This document shows, piece after piece, positions 1,603-15,640 of a stretch of 64,000 bases of DNA. Source of the DNA: an uncultured Nitrososphaeraceae archaeon (lineage in GTDB: Archaea; Thermoproteota; Nitrososphaeria; Nitrososphaerales; Nitrososphaeraceae). The DNA lies in assembly GCA_963779615.1 (NCBI GenBank), contig CAVZZA010000003.1, positions 672,001-736,000 of the forward strand. The letters run 5' to 3'. Made by a program: the position numbers and the translations under genes. Every line of letters starts with the position of its first letter. Within the stretch, counting starts at the first letter, position 1. The notes beneath the pieces are model-generated. The model was given only the letters and a program-made list of their open reading frames with translations, made no database searches and was not told the DNA's origin.

Positions 1603-3276
1603 TTACTTTATCATCATAAAGTAAGGGTCAACATCATAATAGTTTTTACCCGTAATCACATATGCGCCAATATCCCACCTATATCCTGGATCCCCTTCTA
1701 CATGAGCTTTTGTGGTAAAAAAGTCCCCGAAATTGTAATCATATGTATTCTCCTCATTTTTCACGGGTAACGGAAATGTACTATTAATTATCTGCATCAT
1801 GTCCCACTTATTGCTAGTGTTGTTAAATACCCCAAAGGCATGATTAAAGTATGTTTTATTAAAAAGATCGGGTTTATCCATGTCAATATAATAAGCACTC
1901 GCACCAAGATCTCCGTTGACAGCAGGGGAAGCAGCTCCAAATGTCCATGGCCTATTCTTCTCAGATATAAGATATTTCCTTTCGTATGGATCTTTTTTAC
2001 CAAGGTGAAAAGTCGCAGAGTCTACATACGGTATCCATGTTGTTCCATTATCAAAAGATCCCAATGCATTCCACATAAAGTTAATTGAGTTCCCTAGCAT
2101 CCACGCACTTCGTATACGGCTATCTGTGTTGGCTTTACACCACCAGGTTTCGAGATTTGGGTGACACATTTTAGGATCGTTAATGGCGGTCCACGGTGAA
2201 ATCGGTTTACTAATATTGATAGGAGCCGACAGATCGTTGTACCAAAAATACAATTTCATCGAACTTTCGTTTAATAATTGAGCGCCAAAACTCATAGGGT
2301 TTGAAGCACCATTTACTGGAGTTATCTGCTTAACACCCCTATCTAACACTACTTCATAATTAAAGACTCTGGTTGGATTGTCTATTGAATTTGCTAAATC
2401 ATCTAAAGAAAATCGTGTTATCAATCCATACTGTTTCCCTTCGTTTAAATCATAAACAGTAGTTGTCAAATAATAGAATTTATCGGTTACTGTAGTATCA
2501 GGATAGTCCAAATAAGATCTAGTAACATGGGCATTGTTTAACACAGAGGTAGAAATCAGGTCAAATACCACCCAGTTATGAGTATCTTTTGATACTGCCA
2601 ATCTTTCAATATTAGAAGGGGCACCAGCAAATAATACTGGGACACTTTGGCGAACCCACAAATAAATTTTATGGTGGGAATCATATTCAATGTGTTGGTC
2701 AGCCTTGAATAAAGGTACAATCTCTTCGCTACCCATAGTTGCATTCGATGGAATTGACTGTATCCCCTTAAAATCAAAATTAGGATCGACAGGTTGCCAA
2801 TCGTCTTTATCCATTATTCTACCAGTATAATGATTCCCGGCATAAAAGACAAGACTGCCGTTGCTTGCAAAGGTTGGCTCACCCACATTATCAAAGTCTT
2901 TATGAATATTCGAATCAGAATTAATCTTGTATTTCCATATTTTAGAATTATTTAATACTTTAAGGTTAACTGTTGAAGGTAAACTATTTTTTGTTAATAC
3001 ATTGTTTGGCAAACTAGAATTACTAGCCTCTAATTCCTCATTGCTAGAGTTACCCGTATTGGATGTGCTATTACTAGGATCAAAATCTAAAGGTTCAAAA
3101 CATGTTCTGAGTTGTGAACCATCCTCACTTTGGGAATAGGAAAAATTGCACATAGGCGCTGCAATTACCGTATAATGCTCAATTGCTTCAACCAGCGTAA
3201 CATTAATACTAACTAGAGTTAAAAAAACAAGCCCTATAAAAAAATAAATTGGCAATAGGATGAAGATATTTCTCAT
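1603..3276 (-). CDS. Secreted beta-rich hypothetical protein (possible beta-propeller)
   Basis: 557-aa ORF with an N-terminal hydrophobic signal/anchor, a Cys pair and a Ser/Asn linker, followed by an aromatic, beta-strand-rich domain (EPTFASNG..VFYAGN, DYPD, GDFF). No catalytic motif recognised. Confidence 0.8.
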   Translation of the reverse strand: MRNIFILLPIYFFIGLVFLTLVSINVTLVEAIEHYTVIAAPMCNFSYSQSEDGSQLRTCFEPLDFDPSNSTSNTGNSSNEELEASNSSLPNNVLTKNSLPSTVNLKVLNNSKIWKYKINSDSNIHKDFDNVGEPTFASNGSLVFYAGNHYTGRIMDKDDWQPVDPNFDFKGIQSIPSNATMGSEEIVPLFKADQHIEYDSHHKIYLWVRQSVPVLFAGAPSNIERLAVSKDTHNWVVFDLISTSVLNNAHVTRSYLDYPDTTVTDKFYYLTTTVYDLNEGKQYGLITRFSLDDLANSIDNPTRVFNYEVVLDRGVKQITPVNGASNPMSFGAQLLNESSMKLYFWYNDLSAPINISKPISPWTAINDPKMCHPNLETWWCKANTDSRIRSAWMLGNSINFMWNALGSFDNGTTWIPYVDSATFHLGKKDPYERKYLISEKNRPWTFGAASPAVNGDLGASAYYIDMDKPDLFNKTYFNHAFGVFNNTSNKWDMMQIINSTFPLPVKNEENTYDYNFGDFFTTKAHVEGDPGYRWDIGAYVITGKNYYDVDPYFMMIK

Positions 3277-4547: not shown

Positions 4548-6003
4548 TTGGAAGAAAGAATAAGTAAAGACGCCTGGATTTCTTTGGTAATACTAAGCTC
4601 AATTGCGCTCATAACTATGTATGGGGAGACAATGCTCATACCCGCAATCCCCGATCTTGTAAAAGATTTTGAAATTCCATACAATACATCCTCATGGATA
4701 CTTACAGTGTATTTGATTACAGGTGCAGTGATGACGCCTATTGTGGGCAAATTATCCGACATCCATGGAAAGAAAAAAGTATTGTTGATAATTATGGTGA
4801 TCTATTCAATTGGCACTTTGCTAGGTGGAATATCCACAAATATCATGACTATGGTAGTTTCAAGGATAATCCAAGGAATTGGTATCGCAATGTTTCCTGT
4901 AGCTTTTGGAATTATCCGGGAGAAGTTTCCTGAAAAAAAGCTTGCAATAGGACAGGGAATATTCACCTCGGTATTTGCAGCAGGTTCAGTGGTAGGTCTT
5001 GGACTAGGAGCAGCCATTGTTGAACATTTTGGTTGGCGTATGACTTTTCTGTCAATCATACCATTTGCAGTTATTTTGCTGTTTATAATAAAAAAATTTG
5101 TTCACATCATATCAGAAAGACTAGCATTAAAAACGGAAAACGGGGACATTGATGTTAAAGGAACAATAACATTAATTGTGATGCTATCCTCATTTCTGGT
5201 TGCACTAACGTTATTACCTGGACTGATAACGGGTAACGAGAATAATAATAATTATAGTTTGCTGCATACCATTGCGTTATTCGCTTTATCATCTGCCTTA
5301 TTACCCACATTCATTTCAATCCAAAAAAAGTCCAAATCTCCTTTAATTAATTTACAATTGCTAAAAGATGCAGTTCTTCTTCCAACCAATATTTTGATAA
5401 TGACAATCGGCATTTCCATATTAATAATATATCAATCCTTACCGATACTGATACAAAGTCCCCATCCACTTGGCTTTGGAGGTGGTCCGGTTGAAGCTGC
5501 AAGCGTACAGCTTCCATTTATGATACTAACGTTGATAGTGTCTGTATCCTCGGGGTTTCTCATATCAAAGATTGGAAACATAAAACCAACAATAATGGGA
5601 TGTATAATAAGGTACTGTTGGATTTTTTTTGCTTTTCATCTACCATTCAAATGAATTTCTAATAGCTGTAGAATTGGCTGTTGTCGCCATTGGGCTATCC
5701 TTTGCCGAAATAGGTGCTTTTAACATTGTGCTGGTGTCAACACCACCGCATTTGAGTGGAACCTCACTGGGAATTACCATGCTATTGTTCCTTATAGGCA
5801 TGTCAGTTGGCCCCGCCATATCTGGAATTTATTTGGAGAGTTTTAAGTCGTCAATCAAAGGTATTGATGGGCATTATCCATCTAATTTCTCATATGACAT
5901 GATTTTTCTCACTGCTGTTATAATATCTATATTCTCAATAACTCTTACAATAATAGTAACAAAAAAAATGTCACCTGTGATTTCGCAGAAAAACCAATAT
6001 TAA
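4548..6003 (+). pseudogene. MFS transporter (DHA2/EmrB-like), split by one +1 frameshift (pseudogene or sequencing error)
   Basis: ORFs 4548-5654 and 5629-6003 join if one G is removed at 5611-5612, giving GCIISTVGFFLLFIYHS. MFS motif A is GKLSDIHGKK. Paralog of 13363-15039. Confidence 0.85.
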
Positions 6004-7242: not shown

Positions 7243-8619
7243 CTATGCCATAATGGCACGTTCTTTATCTTTCTTTATTTATTTCCTTTAACACATCATC
7301 CGCATAATGTTTTGCCTCGTCTGCTGAGAGTGATGGTTTTATCCCAGTTTGTTCAGTTATAGCCTCTGTCAGACTTATGACCTTTCTCTCTAATTCCTGA
7401 TGCATCTGAGTGTACCTAGGCTGTCAAGCAACTTTGTCTCATCCAATATAGTTCTCTTTATTTCACGGCGTAACTCAGAATCCTGTGCCACTGTTACGGC
7501 GGAGTTCAACAGTCCAACCAAGAGTAGGAATGCAGATAGTGGCACGAAAGAGATGCTAATAAGCCCAAATGGAGGAATTCCTGCAGCGGCCACTGTAGAG
7601 TTAGCCGCAATAAAATAAAATACTATGCCATATGCAGCTGCAAACATATACTCTCTTATACTGCGAGAAGTTTTTACAAGCCGTCCTACAGATCGAAAGC
7701 CAATACCATTTAGGGTTCCAAGGAAGGTTGTAAATACGATAATAAGGAACATCTCTATTGCAGGTGTTTCTGTTTTACTAATAGTTGAGCTCATTTGATA
7801 CAACTCGTCATAAGCGGAAATATATATAACATAAAAAGTAATTATAGGCACGGTTATGAGAAACCAAAATAATGGTTTTCCTACCCTTTTAATATTGTAG
7901 CGTAGAAGAACTATACTTCCACACCACATCAAAATGATGTAGGCGAATTGGGAATATGTTTGGAAATTAATGATAAAACACTTGAATGGATTTTTATCAC
8001 ACTCAAAATTGAATTCAACAGCAGAATCCCCTGTAAACATCAGGGGCTTTTCTACTAATAACTGCTCAAACAAAATGGCAGAACCTATTGCATTAATGGT
8101 AAAGCATGTGGCAGCTAGTCCATAGATCAAGATTATGGGAGATTTCTTTATTTTAAACCACCTGAGCAATTTACATGCAAGAAAACCCATTAATACAGAA
8201 GTAAAACCATAAGCGATTATAACAACTGCCGATATCATATGAATATAATATTGTGAGTAAATATAGATCTGTAAAATGCTTACAACAACAAGGCCAGTTA
8301 AAAGATACAAAACCATCGTCATTGCTTTTTGTAATAGGATAATTTGTGAGTCTTTTACTTTATATTCAGATAATCGTGCTTTGGTTATGGATAAAATGAT
8401 ATACTGACCTAAAAAACATAATATAGCAATAACAGAAAATGATAATACTCCCAATGACGAGGAGGCGTGTAGTTTGAATGTATCGAGGGCACTGCTAATA
8501 TAGTAGTCGACTAGAAGCGCAGCCAAGATAATTAATGAAATTACAAAAAATCTTCTGCTGTCATAGTGTAAAGAACATATATTACCAAGATAGCGATTGT
8601 GAAAGATCAAATTCACCAT
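7243..8619 (-). pseudogene. Multi-pass membrane receptor-like protein, paralog 2 of 3; 1-nt deletion near the C-terminus
   Basis: ORF 7390-8619 reads ...LLDSLGT. The family tail continues in another frame as (A)QMHQELERKVISLTEAITEQTGIKPSLSADEAKHYADDVLKEII to a TAG at 7243-7245. One base is missing near 7410. Confidence 0.8.
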
Positions 8620-8690: not shown

Positions 8691-9513
8691 GAGTCTATCC
8701 CAAAATTCTATGGAATTATAGCTTGTTTTGATCACTGCTAAAGTGTGCCTGTTTCCAAAAGGAGAGGGATAAAAAGGATGATTGCACTATACTCAATATT
8801 CCAGGAGAACTATAGGATGAAATATAAATCATTTTACCAAAGGAGAAACCGCCTAAACAATAGGCCGACCAATCATACCCTTCAGAAAAGTAATTGATGG
8901 TGTCCTATACATCCTAAGAACTGAATGTCAGTGGAAGTTGCTGCCTGCAGAGATGGCTCTGGTTTCACATGTCACAGAAGATTTCAGGAGTGGGTCGGGT
9001 TAGACTTTTCAAAAAGGTGTGGAGTAGAGAAGCAAACTGGGCACAAAAAGGCATATTTTAGCGGCTACAAAGGAATCCCACTCTCAGTTGTCATGTCTTC
9101 CGCAAGCACTCATGATATAAAAATGGTAACAGATGTAATGGATAATATAATTATCAAACGATCATCATCATTAACAAAACATAACTTATACAGAATAAGA
9201 AAACTACAACACCTATGACTTGATAAGGCGTACGATTCCAAGACAGCAAAACAGGAAATCATCAGCCAAGGATATGTGCCACATTTACCGTACAGGAGAA
9301 AAAGAGGGGAAGTCAAGACAGAAACACAAAAGATGTCAAATCGAAAAAAAACACCTTGCTAGAAGGTTGGTTGTGGAAAGAACCAACTCATGGCACAATC
9401 GATTTAGAAAACTGTACACAAGATATGAAAAGAAAGTAGGGAATTATCTTGGCTTGGTACAGTTCTCATGTTGTATCATCATCTACAGAAAGATGATTTT
9501 GGGATTAGGCTAA
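8691..9513 (+). mobile_element. Degenerate IS5-family element (IS427/IS1031-like), internally deleted and frameshifted transposase
   Basis: Imperfect terminal IRs: GAGTCTATCCCAAAAT at 8691 and ATTTTGGGATTAGGC near 9510. Transposase fragments: YILRTECQW, TCHRRFQEW, SKLGTKRHIL, GIPLSVVMSSASTHD, VVERTNSWHNRFRKLYTRYEKK. The segment carrying the first catalytic Asp appears to be missing. Confidence 0.9.
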
Positions 9514-9892
9514 GTCATCATCCCAATCTTTATGATAGAATTCAATGATAGAATTCAATGAAGATTTACAAACGTGTCATTTTTATTTTATTATCTGATA
9601 TGCATTATTAGTTAGAGGCATTAAGCAGAAAGATGCTCTTTTAGGTTATACTTAATGAATGACATAATTCGTAATTACAGAAGTAATGTCTTTGTATTTG
9701 CATTTCTACTACCATAAGTAAAGTATATGGATCTTTAATTATTGGAATTAGTTAATATCGCCATAGAAGAAAATCATTACACACATTTAAAATATCAATA
9801 GAAATCCAACCTGTGTTTTATAAAATCCTATGAATAGCAAATAGATATCAGTCGTAAATAGAATTTGTATGTTCTCTCCTGAAGGTCCAAAA

Positions 9893-10048
9893 TTAATTTT
9901 CCATCCTAAAAATCCGTGCATCAGTGGACAAGTAATTTATAACAGGATCTACACTAACAAATTGCATATCCTGCTTTCTTTCCCAATAAGCAAATCTGTA
10001 CTCATTGTTTTCCAAATCCAGATGATGTGTTTTTAAATCTACATACAT
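9893..10048 (-). CDS. Putative small protein (51 aa) downstream of the ATP-grasp gene
   Basis: Hand translation: MYVDLKTHHLDLENNEYRFAYWERKQDMQFVSVDPVINYLSTDARIFRMEN*. GGGAG lies 3 nt upstream of the ATG. No family recognised. Confidence 0.35.
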   Translation of the reverse strand: MYVDLKTHHLDLENNEYRFAYWERKQDMQFVSVDPVINYLSTDARIFRMEN

Positions 10049-10300
10049 ATTCTCCCAATATTTTAAATATTAAATTTGAGATAAAGAAGGATTGATTGAA
10101 CCAACAATTGTGAGCTTGGCTAATAATGCCCTACTATACCATTTGCGAATTTGAACGATAATTCACCGTTTGGTAAAATCTAGTTCATTCATTCTACTTA
10201 TAACGGAAGCTTACCGAATCCTACTTCTTTTTGATCTAATCCTTTAACTACCATAAAGATTCCACAATTTTCCCAATTATTTTCGCAAACCAAATACCGC

Positions 10301-11425
10301 CTAATGAGAATTGGAATTCGATTCAGAAGACATTGTAGACTCTATTAAATCAACCAATGCTTTGGTTATTGGAAGGTTCGTTTGTCGTTCTATCCACACC
10401 CAGTCTCCCGTGGGGTTGACCTCCAAGAAATAGGGTTTTTCATTTACATCCAGTATAAAGTCAATGGCACCATATTTGAGACCGAGCAGTCTAATGAATC
10501 GGACACAGATTGAGTGAAATTCCTTTTGGAGATGGACAGGCCTCTTATGGAGCTGTGAAATGGGGTAACGATGTAAAACATCTCCACCTTTAGCCCCTGA
10601 TTCAAATTTTATCTCACTTGCAAATACTTTATCATCCACTACTGTTACTCTCAATTCAGAGGTTTTATGTATTCTTTCTTGTAGTATACAAGGAGCGTGA
10701 ACTAGATCATTAAATTTCAAGAGGTCGTTGTGATTTAGGACGTGTGTGTAAATGGAATACAACTCACCATTTGTTTCAATATCATGATGATGTAAGACTT
10801 TTACTACCATATTTTCATTACAAGTATGATAAAATCTGGATGCCTCATTTGGGTCATTTGTAATAAGCGTTGATGGAATGTTGAAACCCACGTTCTTTGC
10901 AGAAAGAAGTTGATTTACACGACTACTACTATGATACATGCTATCAAGGCTATTTATCCATGTACATTTCAGTAAACCATACAGGGTTTGCAATGCATCA
11001 TGCCATTGCTGAAAGGCAAATGTGGAATTTAGTTGGCGGCCATCATAACTTTTCAAAGCGAAATCAAAATTGCGTAGCCATACAACTGAAATATCTGACA
11101 CATTTATAACTGAGTCGCCTATTTTAATTTGAAATAGTGGTTCAGAAGCCTGCGATATGTTATAACAGATACTAAAAGAATGAGGTATATCTTCAATGTT
11201 TAAGCGCAGGTAATCAATACCTCGACGGAGAAGTTCGGTACCCACAATATCTGCTTCAAGGTCCATAATACTGCTTAAGATTAACACTTTCGAAGAAAAA
11301 AGACCACATTCAGGAAATATCTTTACCTTTGTGGTCAGGAAATCCCTAAAGTCAGTAGATAACGTTTCTTCGGGTTTTTTTTCAATTTTATCTACAAAGT
11401 GACAAAGAAATGGAATGCCTGGCAA
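10301..11425 (-). CDS. ATP-grasp ligase, MvdC/MvdD (graspetide synthetase)/RimK-like peptide maturase
   Basis: Motifs VWLR, QLLSAKNVGFNIPSTLITND, ILQERIHKTSELRVTVV, YGAIDF and FLEVNPTGDWVWIE are typical of MvdD-like peptide ligases. The catalytic domain begins near GTG 11287, with a 46-aa extension from TTG 11425. Confidence 0.88.
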   Translation of the reverse strand: MPGIPFLCHFVDKIEKKPEETLSTDFRDFLTTKVKIFPECGLFSSKVLILSSIMDLEADIVGTELLRRGIDYLRLNIEDIPHSFSICYNISQASEPLFQIKIGDSVINVSDISVVWLRNFDFALKSYDGRQLNSTFAFQQWHDALQTLYGLLKCTWINSLDSMYHSSSRVNQLLSAKNVGFNIPSTLITNDPNEASRFYHTCNENMVVKVLHHHDIETNGELYSIYTHVLNHNDLLKFNDLVHAPCILQERIHKTSELRVTVVDDKVFASEIKFESGAKGGDVLHRYPISQLHKRPVHLQKEFHSICVRFIRLLGLKYGAIDFILDVNEKPYFLEVNPTGDWVWIERQTNLPITKALVDLIESTMSSESNSNSH

Positions 11426-11439
11426 TAGTCAGTCATCAA

Positions 11440-11700
11440 TTAATGGGACTTTTTTCCGGGAGGAGGACAACTACGTCCAGGAGGACCACCATCTGCACCA
11501 ATACCATATTTTATGTTTAGATTCCCTGCTGCCGTTAGGATAGTTTCCTTTTCGTCTCTCAGAAATTGCTTTCCCGCGTCGTCAAGTCCCTGCGCATCAC
11601 TCAAGAACTGATCTATGTCAGTTGCATTCAAATAGTTGTTTCGGTATTGATCGTCAATAAACAATTTTCCTATGATGTTTATGGATTCAAGATTACCCAT
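11440..11700 (-). CDS. Putative RiPP precursor peptide with NHLP-clan (Os1348/Nif11-like) helical leader and Gly/Pro-rich C-terminal core
   Basis: 86-aa ATG ORF ending 14 bp before the ATP-grasp gene. The leader-like part is IIGKLFIDDQYRNNYL...FL...GLDD. The tail KYGIGADGG-PPGRSCPPPGKKSH contains a possible double-Gly cleavage site. Confidence 0.65.
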   Translation of the reverse strand: MGNLESINIIGKLFIDDQYRNNYLNATDIDQFLSDAQGLDDAGKQFLRDEKETILTAAGNLNIKYGIGADGGPPGRSCPPPGKKSH

Positions 11701-11720
11701 GAATATCCGACAAGCACTCC

Positions 11721-11736
11721 ATTATATAGCTTTTTG
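11721..11736 (-). promoter_or_regulatory. Putative BRE-TATA promoter of the precursor/ATP-grasp operon
   Basis: Minus strand reads CAAAAAGCTATATAAT about 21-36 nt upstream of ATG 11700, the spacing expected for a leaderless archaeal transcript. Confidence 0.55.
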
Positions 11737-12063
11737 GCTTAATGCCTCATTTTTTCCTATTGTCTACACTTACTTCGTTATTTTATAACCTTATTGTCTA
11801 ATTCTTCGTTAGTTCCGCTACACATATATCTTCAAATAACTTGCGCCTATACAGTAACTACCGAAAAAACGCCTTAAAGATCGCTCAATAGAGACAGGAA
11901 TAACAGTATTGGAAAGATCACAAAGTAAAAAATAATGATGTTTCAACAAAATAGGCGTTAGCGGACTAATGGACAAAACGCTGTCTAAAGCGAAGTATTT
12001 TGCGGAGTTAAAGAAAGACAGGTTAAGAATGACTAGAGAGCACATAGCTTTTAAATAATAATA

Positions 12064-13120
12064 GATCTCTTGCTTAATTGCCACTAGACATCTTTATGAC
12101 CATTAATTCATTGATTCCCATTGATTCCCTGTACTTTCTTTGCTCTCGTATGACAGGTTATCCAAAAAACCGATACTTTTCAAATAATTCACCGGTCTGA
12201 CGGTAAAGGAGTTTGACGATATTTGTGATAAGGGGCTATTGAAAAGACACGGCAGGCATGAGATCAGGCGACCGTCCAATAGAAAAGACAGTAGGGAACG
12301 ATCCATAGGTGCAGGCAGGCATTTCAAACTGGATGTAAAGAACAGGTTTATGATGCTTTTGGTCTACTGCCGTCTTTACAATATCCACACATTGGCTGGT
12401 TTTTTTTTGTTTGACTTGGACCAGAGTAACATTTGCATGGACATACAGAAGATTGAGCCGCCGGTAAGAAAGTGCGTGCCAATTCCACAAAAGATGCGCA
12501 AAATAACCAAAAGGCTGCGCACACCAGAGGAAGTTGAAGGCATTTTCCACGGATTCTGTCATTCATAGATTGCACAGAACAACAAATTTCAAGGCCTTAA
12601 AATAAGAGACGAAAGAAGATGTACTATTAGGGCAAGAAGAAAAGGCATACCGTAAAGACAGCTTATGGTTAACAACCAGGGCCTCATCATTCACAAAGCA
12701 AGCCACAAGAAAGGATAAAGGCATGACTATGACATATACAAAAAGAATCACTCAATAACCCCAAAGCAGGTTGTCAGCGTGTTTGAGCTTGGTTATCTTG
12801 GGGTTGAGAAAGACATTCCTGACCAAATATCATCCTTGCCAAACAAAAAGAGAAACCAAAAAGACCTGTCTCAAGAAGAGAAAGATTACAACCAGAACCA
12901 CTCTAGAAAGAGAATGGCGATAGAGCACACCATTTGCAGAATGAAAAGGTACAGGATAATGAGCGATGTCTTCAGAAACAGGTTGAGAAATTATGCCAGG
13001 ATAACTGAAATAGCATCAGGGCTGGTAAACTATAGAATATTAGCATCTCCTTTTTAGATGGGCATCATCATTCATTGCCATGCTGAACAGAGAATACTGT
13101 TTCTAAATATGCAAGACATC
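12064..13120 (+). mobile_element. Degenerate IS5-superfamily element (DDE_Tnp_4/Harbinger-like transposase), copy A
   Basis: IRs GATCTCTTGC at 12064 and GCAAGACATC ending at 13120, flanked by TA. Fragments LSYDRLSKKP, LDQSNICMDIQKIE, LGYLGVEKD and IEHTICRMKRYRIM are spread over several frames. Homologous to 54869-55922. Confidence 0.9.
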
Positions 13121-13362: not shown

Positions 13363-15039
13363 TTAAACATTTACCCGAAGTGCCTTTGTCTTTCTACTCA
13401 ATGCTATAGATATTGCTATTGACACAATTGAAAGTATTACAGCAGTAAGAAATATCAAATTAAAAGAATAGGTTGAGGGCAATGATTCGGACACTCCTTT
13501 AATATTAATCACGGTTTGATTAGTTTGCATATACATTGCAGCAAGAGCCGGACCGATAGAGGCTCCTATTATCCTTAACATGCTACTCATCCCTATAGTC
13601 ACCCCAGCAGACTCCCGTGGTGAAGATAGAATGATTATGTTCATTGCGCCAACGGCAGCTAGCGATAGCCCAGCGGACAATATGGCTAAACCGGTTGAGA
13701 TAAATAATTCCGAGGAATGAAATAAGAACAACACGGCAAAGCCAAATGTGGTTAAAATAGAACCAAAGATAATCGGTTTTAGGGATCCCAATTTGGATAT
13801 GATGAATCCAGACGTGGGTCCAAATATCAAAAGTACAATTGCAAACGGCAGTTGAACTCTACCGGTGTCTACAGAGTTTTCTCCAAATCCAATGGGTTGT
13901 GAAGTTTGTACTAGAATAGGTATGGTCTGAAAAACCATAAACATCGACATGCCCACAATCATTATAATCAGACTAGAAAACAATATTGTGGGCTGAAGGA
14001 AAATTTTAAAGTCAATCAATGGAAATTCGGCGCGTCTTTCAGTGTAAACAAACAGGATAAGCGAAACCGTCCCCATTGCTAAAAAGGGAAAAATAGTTTC
14101 AAAGGTATTGTAAAAGTTAGAAACACCATTGGATTTGATATTTAGGCTACCATCTGCTCCTGTTGCTGGTCCGGGCCCTGCTGCCGGGGGCTGCAATAAT
14201 GTTATCGAAAGAAGAAACGAAGTGATGGTAATTGCCAACAGTATCGATCCTTTAACATCCATTTGGCTTTTCCTTATTTTTACTTCCCTCTCTGGTTTTT
14301 TACCATTATTGTGGCCTTTTGCCGTTTTGGCCTTTTCCGCATTTAATTTACTGTTTTCTATTTCGTAGCTGTAATCATCGTCGATATGGATATACTTTCG
14401 AATTATGTATAGGAGTATTATTGAAATAGGTATTATTGTAAAAAAGGTCATTCTCCAACCAAAATGCTGGATAATAAGGCCGCCAATGGATAATCCAATA
14501 ACCGAGCCAGCTGCAAACATAGAGGTAATAGCACCCTGTGCAATCGATATTTTTTCGCGCGGGAATTGGTCTCTCACGATGCTAAAAGCAATTGGAAACA
14601 TTGACATACCAAATCCCTGAATTGCCCTTGAGATTATAAGGGTAAATATATCATTTGCAAACCCCCCAAGAGAGACACCCGCTGTATATATTACCATTAT
14701 TATCAACAATATCTTTTTCCTACCATAAGTATCAGATAACTTGCCGGCTATGGGAGTCATAACAGCTCCAGATATCAGGTATGAGGTCAAAATCCAAGAA
14801 GACAATCCATACGACACATCAAAATTGCTTATCAATGTTGGAATGGCCGGTATCAGCATTGTCTCTGCATACATTACCATAGTCGCAATACAACTCAGAA
14901 TAACAAGAATTTTCCATGCATAAGGTGGAATTTTTAAGTGTTTTTTTGGTTGAGAATTATAACGACCGTCATCATTATCGCCATCTTTTGAAAATGCCCC
15001 TTGTATTTCATTTGTTTTTTCTTTTTTTGAATTTTTCAT
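13363..15039 (-). CDS. MFS transporter (DHA2/EmrB-like drug:H+ antiporter)
   Basis: 558 aa with about 14 TM segments, motif A GKLSDTYGRK and RAIQGFG. Lies downstream of a MarR gene. Confidence 0.92.
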   Translation of the reverse strand: MKNSKKEKTNEIQGAFSKDGDNDDGRYNSQPKKHLKIPPYAWKILVILSCIATMVMYAETMLIPAIPTLISNFDVSYGLSSWILTSYLISGAVMTPIAGKLSDTYGRKKILLIIMVIYTAGVSLGGFANDIFTLIISRAIQGFGMSMFPIAFSIVRDQFPREKISIAQGAITSMFAAGSVIGLSIGGLIIQHFGWRMTFFTIIPISIILLYIIRKYIHIDDDYSYEIENSKLNAEKAKTAKGHNNGKKPEREVKIRKSQMDVKGSILLAITITSFLLSITLLQPPAAGPGPATGADGSLNIKSNGVSNFYNTFETIFPFLAMGTVSLILFVYTERRAEFPLIDFKIFLQPTILFSSLIIMIVGMSMFMVFQTIPILVQTSQPIGFGENSVDTGRVQLPFAIVLLIFGPTSGFIISKLGSLKPIIFGSILTTFGFAVLFLFHSSELFISTGLAILSAGLSLAAVGAMNIIILSSPRESAGVTIGMSSMLRIIGASIGPALAAMYMQTNQTVINIKGVSESLPSTYSFNLIFLTAVILSIVSIAISIALSRKTKALRVNV

Positions 15040-15082: not shown

Positions 15083-15640
15083 TCAAAGACCTGGCGAGGT
15101 TTTATTAAAGGTGGAAGCAACTTTTTCTTTTTCTTGTAGTTCGGGCATAACAGCATTATTTCTTTTTTGTTTATACTGCTCTGCAAGGTTTAAATTGAAT
15201 TCGTTTTGGATGTTGTTCCACATTTTTTCCAATGTGTTTTTTGTTATTGAAATATTTTCTTCAGAAATGTCATTCAAAGATATTTTTTTTATCCTTAATC
15301 CACAGTCTATCATCAGATCCTGAACACCGCATAGTTTTTCTGTAAGAAAAATTCTATTGTTTCGCCTGTCAGTCGGATCTACTTTTCTGACAACAAACCC
15401 ATCTTTTTCTAATTTATCGATAATAGGGATAAGAGTCGGGCCCTCAAGGCCAAGCTTATCGGCTATCTCTTTCTGAGTTAAGCCATTATCATCATTATTC
15501 ACCAGTATTATAATGATCTTCCATTGACCGAAAGTAATTCCCACATTCTTCCGTAGTTCCTGGTCAAAGGCCTGAATCAACACCTTTGCGGTCCTGTTGA
15601 TTATAAATCCAATACTATTTTCAAAATCAAATTTTTGCAT
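15083..15640 (-). CDS. MarR-family transcriptional regulator
   Basis: Winged-HTH signature LTQKEIADKLGLEGPTLIPIIDKLEKDGFVVRKVDPTDRR. Confidence 0.93.
   Translation of the reverse strand: MQKFDFENSIGFIINRTAKVLIQAFDQELRKNVGITFGQWKIIIILVNNDDNGLTQKEIADKLGLEGPTLIPIIDKLEKDGFVVRKVDPTDRRNNRIFLTEKLCGVQDLMIDCGLRIKKISLNDISEENISITKNTLEKMWNNIQNEFNLNLAEQYKQKRNNAVMPELQEKEKVASTFNKTSPGL

Follow-up and report, generated by a model that had tools for sequence, protein, structure and literature searches.

An NHLP-clan small protein and a graspetide-type ATP-grasp ligase form a probable graspetide-like pair in an ammonia-oxidising archaeon

The macrocyclases of the described graspetide systems (MdnA/MdnB/MdnC, CdnC, PsnA2/PsnB and PruB) combine an MvdD pre-ATP-grasp domain with an ATP-grasp domain, and a small open reading frame (ORF) lies directly upstream. 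A pair of genes with this layout is found in the 64,000-nucleotide stretch of DNA analysed here (the window; positions 672,001 to 736,000 of contig CAVZZA010000003.1, assembly GCA_963779615.1, from an uncultured Nitrososphaeraceae archaeon), where an 86-aa small protein is followed by an ATP-grasp ligase of the same architecture and the tail of the small protein likewise holds Asp/Glu together with Lys/Ser/Thr. The pair differs from the described graspetide systems in that the host is an archaeon, in that a leader-type motif sits on a 45-residue extension of the enzyme, and in that the small protein has an NHLP-clan helical domain and, throughout its family, lacks the Phhx(1,2)h motif of graspetide precursors. 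Genes for a protease, a GNAT or an ABC transporter were not seen among the neighbours in the window or in the few kb around the other loci; a seven-transmembrane-like (7TM-like) membrane protein is found instead. We consider that the pair is probably a real graspetide-like system with an unusual leader logic, the chemistry and role set out below being predictions. A literature search found no graspetides in ammonia-oxidising archaea, and the main text of a large phylogenomic survey mentions neither these archaea nor NHLP, though supplementary tables may list such loci.

Long helical leaders related to the nitrile hydratase alpha subunit, as here, are a feature of the NHLP/Nif11-leader class of ribosomally synthesised and post-translationally modified peptides (proteusins, prochlorosins and selidamides). 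These leaders typically have a Gly-Gly cleavage site that goes with a peptidase-domain transporter, and LanM and YcaO enzymes are among their partners. The passages on NHLP leaders in one account (PMC10849128) name radical SAM enzymes and GNATs as partners and do not mention ATP-grasp enzymes, and we found no ATP-grasp partner for an NHLP leader in the published literature. The small protein of the window also belongs to the same family as, or a sister family of, Os1348 from Pseudomonas sp. Os17 (NF038399; PDB entry 6lk7), these proteins being helical and about 70-100 aa long. Os1348 is described as an 85-aa, six-helix dimer with its last six residues disordered, thought to be modified by the products of its neighbouring genes, which encode a GNAT, a HEXXH protein and a SagB-type dehydrogenase (PMC7726476). 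In the window, unlike the Os1348 cluster, the partner is an ATP-grasp enzyme. ATP-grasp enzymes do target the acidic C-terminal part of a small protein in the LysW systems (with LysX/ArgX) and of ribosomal protein S6 (with RimK), in archaea too, but the window ligase is far more distant from these enzymes than from the graspetide macrocyclases.

The identity of the ligase was assessed by sequence, by predicted fold and by phylogeny. Among NCBIfam models the lowest E-values were obtained with TIGR04187 (2e-57), MvdC (3.2e-54) and MvdD (5.5e-44), compared with 7.7e-15 for RimK and 1.3e-5 for LysX, and the bit scores for the graspetide models were far better than those for the RimK model TIGR00768 (53.6-55 bits, cut-off 143.4). 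Residues 46-159 match the MvdD pre-ATP-grasp family PF21068 with 29.8 bits (cut-off 27) and residues 172-361 the ATP-grasp family PF08443 with 29.6 bits (cut-off 21). All six PDB sequence matches at E<=0.001 are macrocyclases (AMdnB, CdnC, MdnC, MdnB, PruB and PsnB). The same six proteins fill ranks 1-32 of a Foldseek search (2e-27 to 2e-18) with the AlphaFold2 model of the ligase (mean predicted local distance difference test, pLDDT, 88), while RimK, LysX and ArgX (rank 33) appear only from rank 33 onwards, at 1.7e-16 and weaker. The host encodes two true RimK-family proteins on another contig, which score 280 and 268 bits as against 53.6 bits for the window ligase. In a FastTree phylogeny of 95 rows, from which duplicates within the own genome (L001, L021, L111 and L117), ORFs of fewer than 280 aa and fragments (L019, L020, L038, L039, L046, L050 and L108) were left out, the ligase is one of 31 rows that form an archaeal clade (support 99); the 61 bacterial-type rows fall outside this clade, as does the RimK outgroup, which sits on a branch of length 1.9. 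The original prediction of an MvdC/MvdD-like enzyme is thus borne out: the ligase lies outside the housekeeping RimK/LysX enzymes on every one of these comparisons, which rule out such an identity, and by sequence and predicted fold it belongs with the graspetide macrocyclases (MdnB/C, CdnC, PsnB). The two RimK-family genes of the host genome (G000; LysX/ArgX-type, C5:269568-270389 and 275563-276408, 6 kb apart) presumably encode housekeeping enzymes of a lysine/arginine pathway.

Catalytic residues of the ligase are kept: K209, R259, D322, E335 and N337 are invariant across 41 homologues. R118 (in VWLRNFD) is also invariant in this set and, like R259 (in ELRVTVV), is aligned with an Arg of AMdnB, CdnC and MdnC. 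In a preprint on PsnB, the core peptide and the ring-forming acid are described as bound by two conserved arginines, Arg72 and Arg213. From their positions, R118 and R259 would seem to be the equivalents of these residues.

All ligases of the archaeal clade have an N-terminal extension of ~45 residues, which the bacterial macrocyclases do not have; alignments to bacterial-type loci and to the family models begin only at ligase residues 31-63. The extension contains two motifs. The first, PFLCHFVD (residues 5-12), follows the leader-type pattern Phhx(1,2)h and is nearly invariant as PFLCxF(V/I)D, with P5, L7, C8 and D12 at least 90% conserved; the second is TDFRDFLTTKVK (residues 24-35). Of the 90 extension-bearing homologues, 85 have Phhx(1,2)h near the start, within their first 25 residues. 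As controls, it was found in 2 of 32 long ORFs of the window and in 5 of 64 bacterial-type ligases, and it is absent from all 19 members of the peptide family. Makarova et al. (PMC8939145) report this pattern for about half of graspetide precursors and regard it as the same thing as PFFARFL, the activating helix. Residues 1-20 of the ligase are modelled as a short helix and a strand, with pLDDT values of 86 and 82. The homologues begin at the same place and with the same residues (MPGIPFLCHFV / MSDTPFLC), which supports the TTG start of the ligase gene. We infer that the extension may be a built-in leader acting in cis, by analogy with laboratory enzymes in which the activation motif has likewise been placed at the N-terminus of the ligase; in the window family this arrangement would be a natural one. 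Leader-fused MdnC has reportedly been made as such a laboratory macrocyclase. Leader-fused variants of PsnB were used in the PsnB preprint.

Residues 1-62 of the 86-aa peptide form a helical leader or scaffold and are followed by the tail. While a word-indexed protein search with the peptide returned only two close relatives, a profile built from eight sequences, applied to 1.84 billion representatives, brought up 15 proteins with E<=1e-3, mostly of 69-102 aa. Eleven of the 19 family members match NF038399, 'Os1348 family NHLP clan protein' (best E-value 1e-19), three match TIGR04509 and one matches TIGR03793. The orthologue at locus L032, with 39% identity in the peptide and 57% in the ligase, reaches 2.3e-6 with NF038399 (27.6 bits, below the cut-off of 40), and the best PDB match of the peptide profile is the crystal structure of Os1348, 6lk7, though weak (E 0.07). 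Membership of the NHLP clan is therefore supported for the 86-aa peptide by transitive homology. One of the 15 profile matches (P0134; 4e-5) is a protein of 406 aa with four tandem NHLP-type domains and then a Gly/Tyr-rich tail (GGLYGGYGG...). The leader part of the peptide is under purifying selection: over 59 codons compared with L031, the non-synonymous rate (dN) is 0.20 and the synonymous rate (dS) 0.78, a dN/dS of about 0.26, and for the peptide and ligase genes alike dN/dS against L031 is about 0.26-0.28. Taken with the homologues, which keep the frame, and with length changes in the tail that are in frame (3-nt and 6-nt variants at 11453-11460 in environmental relatives), this shows that the 86-aa ORF is more than a chance reading frame.

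The tail is variable. In the window it has PPGRSCPPPGKKSH, and the relatives have LPPWKSH, ECPPWKSH, GENKRS or D-P-K-I-C-C. Candidate ring partners in the window tail are K64, D70, S77, C78, K83, K84 and S85. All 19 family tails share one feature only, an acid and, after it, a Lys among the last five residues. A second pattern, [K/S/T]-Y-x(1-6)-[D/E], has the usual donor-then-acid order and occurs in nine of the 19 members; in the window it corresponds to K64...D70. This bears on the claim that the only acid of the tail precedes all of its nucleophiles, which does not hold, Lys64 lying six residues upstream of Asp70. The reversed, thioester or C-terminal chemistry proposed with it rested on an arbitrary boundary of the core, and since K64...D70 fits the usual order, a reversed topology is possible without being required. 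Our best guess for the chemistry is a lactam between an acid and a Lys near the C-terminus of the peptide. The string GADGG at residues 68-72 recalls a Gly-Gly cleavage site, but GG occurs in only two of the 19 family tails, no conserved site of this kind was found in them, and no gene for a peptidase-domain transporter was seen in the flanks examined (the neighbours in the window and a few kb around the other loci).

Support for binding of the peptide by the ligase comes from a predicted complex. Three runs gave ipSAE interface scores of 0.71, 0.70 and 0.74, compared with 0.41 for the best control; the mark used was attained by 58 of 80 solved complexes and by 2 of 110 mismatched pairs. The runs have at least 58% of their contacts in common, with a partner pLDDT of at least 69. 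In the models, residues 4-15 and 46-69 of the peptide contact ligase residues 22-36, 54-69, 290 and 341-347. The start of the tail, residues 63-69, is placed near the E-x-N / GDW stretch of the active site (ligase 290 and 341-347), with D70 next in line. We also considered whether KLFIDD in the peptide mimics LFIEDL, given as the leader motif of plesiocin in the PsnB preprint; this was dropped, as the likeness is that of a short string and the modelled binding site lies elsewhere.

The distribution of the pair was examined at 99 ligase loci outside the own genome, 19 from genomes of relatives and 80 from metagenome contigs. An NHLP-like ORF was detected with the family profile, which had been built partly from three of the five syntenic loci, at five of them (L031, L032, L033, L035 and L036). 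In all five the peptide ORF immediately precedes the ligase, in the same orientation and at a distance of 3-28 nt, and together with the window these loci make up two archaeal sub-clades that are each other's nearest in the tree. The upstream sequence is too short to judge at L034, L038 and L040, and L039 is rearranged. None of 64 bacterial-type ligase loci has the peptide. The peptide profile matched 3 of 151 genomes of the family Nitrososphaeraceae, two of them weakly, and ligase paralogues without an adjacent peptide occur in 19 of 33 genomes of the same genus. The synteny expected in relatives is therefore confined to the two sub-clades: the pair recurs on Nitrososphaeraceae-type contigs and is missing next to the paralogues of the genus, and it is a patchy accessory trait. 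A genus-wide clade of paralogues (L003-L018 and L041-L045) is always followed by a gene for a 124-aa CheY-like response regulator, for example at L015:1507-2583 and 2788-3162; in G000, with a single ligase match, no copy of that clade was seen. Contigs from three soil metatranscriptome runs of two studies, 90-99% identical to the window, cover both genes, and two of them bridge peptide and ligase (X19, 11346-11735, and X20, 11065-11585). Some parts of the stretch, such as 9615-10258, have no cover by RNA-library contigs, a gap that cannot be interpreted.

The two genes are compact, occupying about 1.4 kb, with 14 nt between the TAA stop of the peptide ORF and the TTG of the ligase (Table 1). 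The 86-aa ORF, the short gap, the minus-strand ATP-grasp gene, the quoted motif strings and the tail string KYGIGADGGPPGRSCPPPGKKSH are all present as originally described. The accompanying claim of a BRE/TATA element (TFB recognition element and TATA box) stands only in part. The string AAAAAGCTATATAA is there, and its TATA centre lies about 25 nt 5' of the ATG, which is the layout expected for a leaderless archaeal mRNA. However, strings of this kind are not enriched (11 matches with at most two mismatches in the window, compared with 19 +/- 4.7 in shuffles) and X19 (record 18), a contig from an RNA library, continues across it as far as 11735, so that we leave the promoter as putative; an alignment of upstream regions gave no informative pattern. 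The host assembly comprises 3.17 Mb in five contigs, with a G+C content of about 35% around the locus. It encodes amoA (E 1.6e-117), in agreement with the earlier assignment of the host to the ammonia-oxidising archaea.

Table 1. Positions of the peptide-ligase pair and of neighbouring features in the window.
Feature	Position	Strand	Basis
86-aa NHLP-clan (Os1348-family-like) small protein, candidate precursor/substrate	11440..11700	-	ORF listing
Variable C-terminal tail IKYGIGADGGPPGRSCPPPGKKSH, residues 63-86	11443..11514	-	tail alignments
374-aa graspetide-type ATP-grasp ligase, TTG start	10301..11425	-	ORF listing, family models
N-terminal extension of the ligase, residues 1-45	11291..11425	-	alignment of homologues
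BRE/TATA-like string AAAAAGCTATATAA (putative)	about 11722-11737	-	read from sequence
Uncharacterised multi-helix (7TM-like) membrane protein gene	7268..8619	-	conserved neighbour
Insertion sequence (IS) transposase fragments (DDE_Tnp_1_2), between ligase and membrane-protein gene	8925..9513	+	domain matches
Second IS transposase fragments (HTH_Tnp_4 and DDE_Tnp_4), upstream of peptide gene	12239..13057	+	domain matches

Broken transposases of two different IS families thus lie on both sides of the pair, and at 9028-9071 many of the environmental contigs stop or part from the window, as a repeat would cause. Just past the upstream fragments are genes for an MFS transporter, 13363-15039 (-), and a MarR-family regulator, 15083-15640 (-). 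A second MFS gene, 4548-6003 (+), appears to be split into ORFs of 368 and 124 aa, both with MFS_1 matches. The original prediction did not include these transposase fragments, the extension of the enzyme or the membrane-protein partner.

The membrane protein, read as a 409-aa ORF at 7390-8619 (-), is 36% identical (E 1e-71) to a neighbour of the ligase in L033, and its family is present in L032, L033, L035, L036, L037, L039, L044, L112 and L113. It has no match in Pfam or NCBIfam. The model (pLDDT 80) shows a bundle of long helices with a long C-terminal helix, for which a search of the PDB gave no significant match (best E 0.078, with a template-modelling score of about 0.3-0.4, to class-B G-protein-coupled receptors). 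In a protein Atlas it falls near unnamed Nitrososphaerota clusters, and its nearest named cluster, HisKA_7TM (0.82), is to be read only as a lead. At two of these loci, from two other Nitrososphaeraceae genomes, the membrane protein is paired with an NHLP-like small protein encoded just upstream of it, and there is no ATP-grasp gene (L112:1444-1779 (-) with L112:1-1381 (-), and L113:1462-1734 (-) with L113:7-1008 (-)), which suggests that small protein and membrane protein may form a module of their own; these small proteins end in GIRPVEMF or GIGPIEMF.

On balance, and with moderate confidence, we favour the reading that this soil-dwelling, ammonia-oxidising archaeon carries, between IS fragments, an accessory modification system of a graspetide-like kind. 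The small protein would be folded and helical, an NHLP-clan member similar to Os1348, with a flexible C-terminal tail. Its first helix would be held by two parts of the ligase, helix alpha1 and the second motif of the extension. The Phhx(1,2)h motif at the enzyme N-terminus (compare PFFARFL) would occupy, in cis, the leader site in the central domain and so activate the ligase. A side-chain carboxylate of the tail (Asp70, or the Glu in relatives with Y-x-G-E-x-K-R) would then be activated by conversion to an acyl phosphate; ring closure with a nearby Lys, Ser or Cys would give an amide or an ester. Of the candidate ring pairs, the one best conserved is the acid and the Lys within the last five residues. 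The 7TM-like membrane protein may be the partner of the small protein, as an exporter, a receptor or an immunity factor. A bolder version of this, tentative and in our view less likely than not, is that of a 'self-led' macrocyclase: the PFLCHF helix would have moved from the precursor to the enzyme to become a cis switch, the NHLP protein would dock at a new site formed by the second helix of the extension and helix alpha1, the tail acid would be joined to a Lys one to four residues from the C-terminus, and the product would work with the 7TM-like protein as a signal-receptor or export pair. If true, the acid-before-nucleophile ring would be one not described for graspetides.

A number of results weigh against a graspetide-like system. 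The scores of the ligase are all below the curated cut-offs of the graspetide models (194.8 of 350 bits for TIGR04187, 184.2 of 425 for MvdC and 150.6 of 475 for MvdD). The window peptide itself matches no Pfam or NCBIfam family at E<=1, so that the part of the original call of an NHLP-like precursor that stands is clan membership through the relatives. No acid follows the conserved Tyr in L032 or in P0124. According to the PsnB preprint, ATP is contacted by a conserved D(F/W)R loop, and AMdnB, CdnC and MdnC have DWR at this place; in the window ligase the loop is D282-V-L-H-R286, one residue longer. Together with SSSRVNQL (residues 166-173), in which R169 replaces the Lys of NK...QL, this had been taken as the sign of a special reaction. 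Both deviations are real, but R169, H285 and R286 are conserved in at least 90% of the 41 family members, the loop consensus being D-D-hydrophobic-H-R. The two are therefore traits of the clade and not evidence for special chemistry here. In the model the leader site (ligase 22-36 and 54-69) differs from the central-domain pocket of PsnB and MdnC, which at the same time makes it unlikely that the complex passed through likeness to solved complexes; the model could equally be an artefact, and one control reached 0.41. As DNA can contaminate such libraries, the RNA-library contigs are no proof of transcription or of a single transcript. Finally, no peptide of this kind lies near the 21 rows of clade-B ligases (33-38% identity), which share the N-terminal extension.

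The main rival on chemistry is a ligation without ring closure, in which the ligase would couple a free amino acid or amine to the acid in the tail or to the carboxylate at the C-terminus, the NHLP-fold protein being a carrier or tagged protein, as with RimK, LysX/ArgX-LysW or PGM1-type enzymes. Most relatives have very short tails, such as GENKRS, with little room for a ring, and the altered ATP-contacting loop is found family-wide. Os1348, as described, is a stably folded dimer with six disordered C-terminal residues (PMC7726476), which would suit a carrier better than a disposable leader. Archaea do pair ATP-grasp enzymes with small carriers, and ArgX with LysW is among the structural matches of the ligase, at rank 33. 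The sequence and fold of the ligase are nevertheless much nearer to the macrocyclases than to RimK, LysX or ArgX; it retains R118 and R259, which by position would correspond to the arginines that recognise the core acid in PsnB; and the Lys conserved beside the acid in every tail of the family offers an internal nucleophile. The Pfam and NCBIfam scans also gave no LysW-type match for the window peptide. We regard ligation of a free amine as improbable.

The graspetide-like reading also supposes that the small protein is the substrate. It would instead be a partner or ligand of the 7TM-like protein if the target of the ligase lay elsewhere, or merely an activating subunit of the enzyme. In G010 and G124 an NHLP-like protein of 90-111 aa is encoded directly upstream of the membrane protein and there is no ligase, at L037 the ligase is preceded directly by the membrane-protein gene, with no peptide, and the peptide is rare in the family while peptide-less ligase homologues are widespread in the genus. 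On the other hand, wherever both genes occur the peptide is kept immediately upstream on the same strand, within 28 nt, in five loci out of five; the complex model passes its controls and sets tail residues 63-69 beside the active-site region, and RNA-library contigs bridge the two genes. We give a non-substrate role much the same small chance as free-amine ligation. A decaying remnant, in which the pair of this genome no longer makes a product, seems very unlikely to us. The transposase fragments on both sides would fit decay, as would a 1-nt deletion near 7410 in the membrane-protein gene, which puts the last ~47 residues in another frame relative to a 99%-identical homologue of 450 aa; X1, a DNA run of a close relative, keeps the extra base. 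The single-base difference could stem from the assembly or could be a frameshift particular to the strain, and no more than the cytoplasmic tail is lost through it. The peptide and ligase ORFs are intact, with all family-invariant residues present, the dN/dS of both genes against L031 is low, and near-identical sequences are found in RNA libraries.

If the system is real, it would represent a new pairing of leader and enzyme, in which an NHLP-clan scaffold is combined with an ATP-grasp macrocyclase. It would also provide a natural case of a leader motif built into the enzyme, with a bearing on the evolution of leader-dependent activation, and a leader-independent cyclase for engineering. For the Nitrososphaeraceae, which are major soil nitrifiers, it would mean a peptide-based trait for interaction or signalling.

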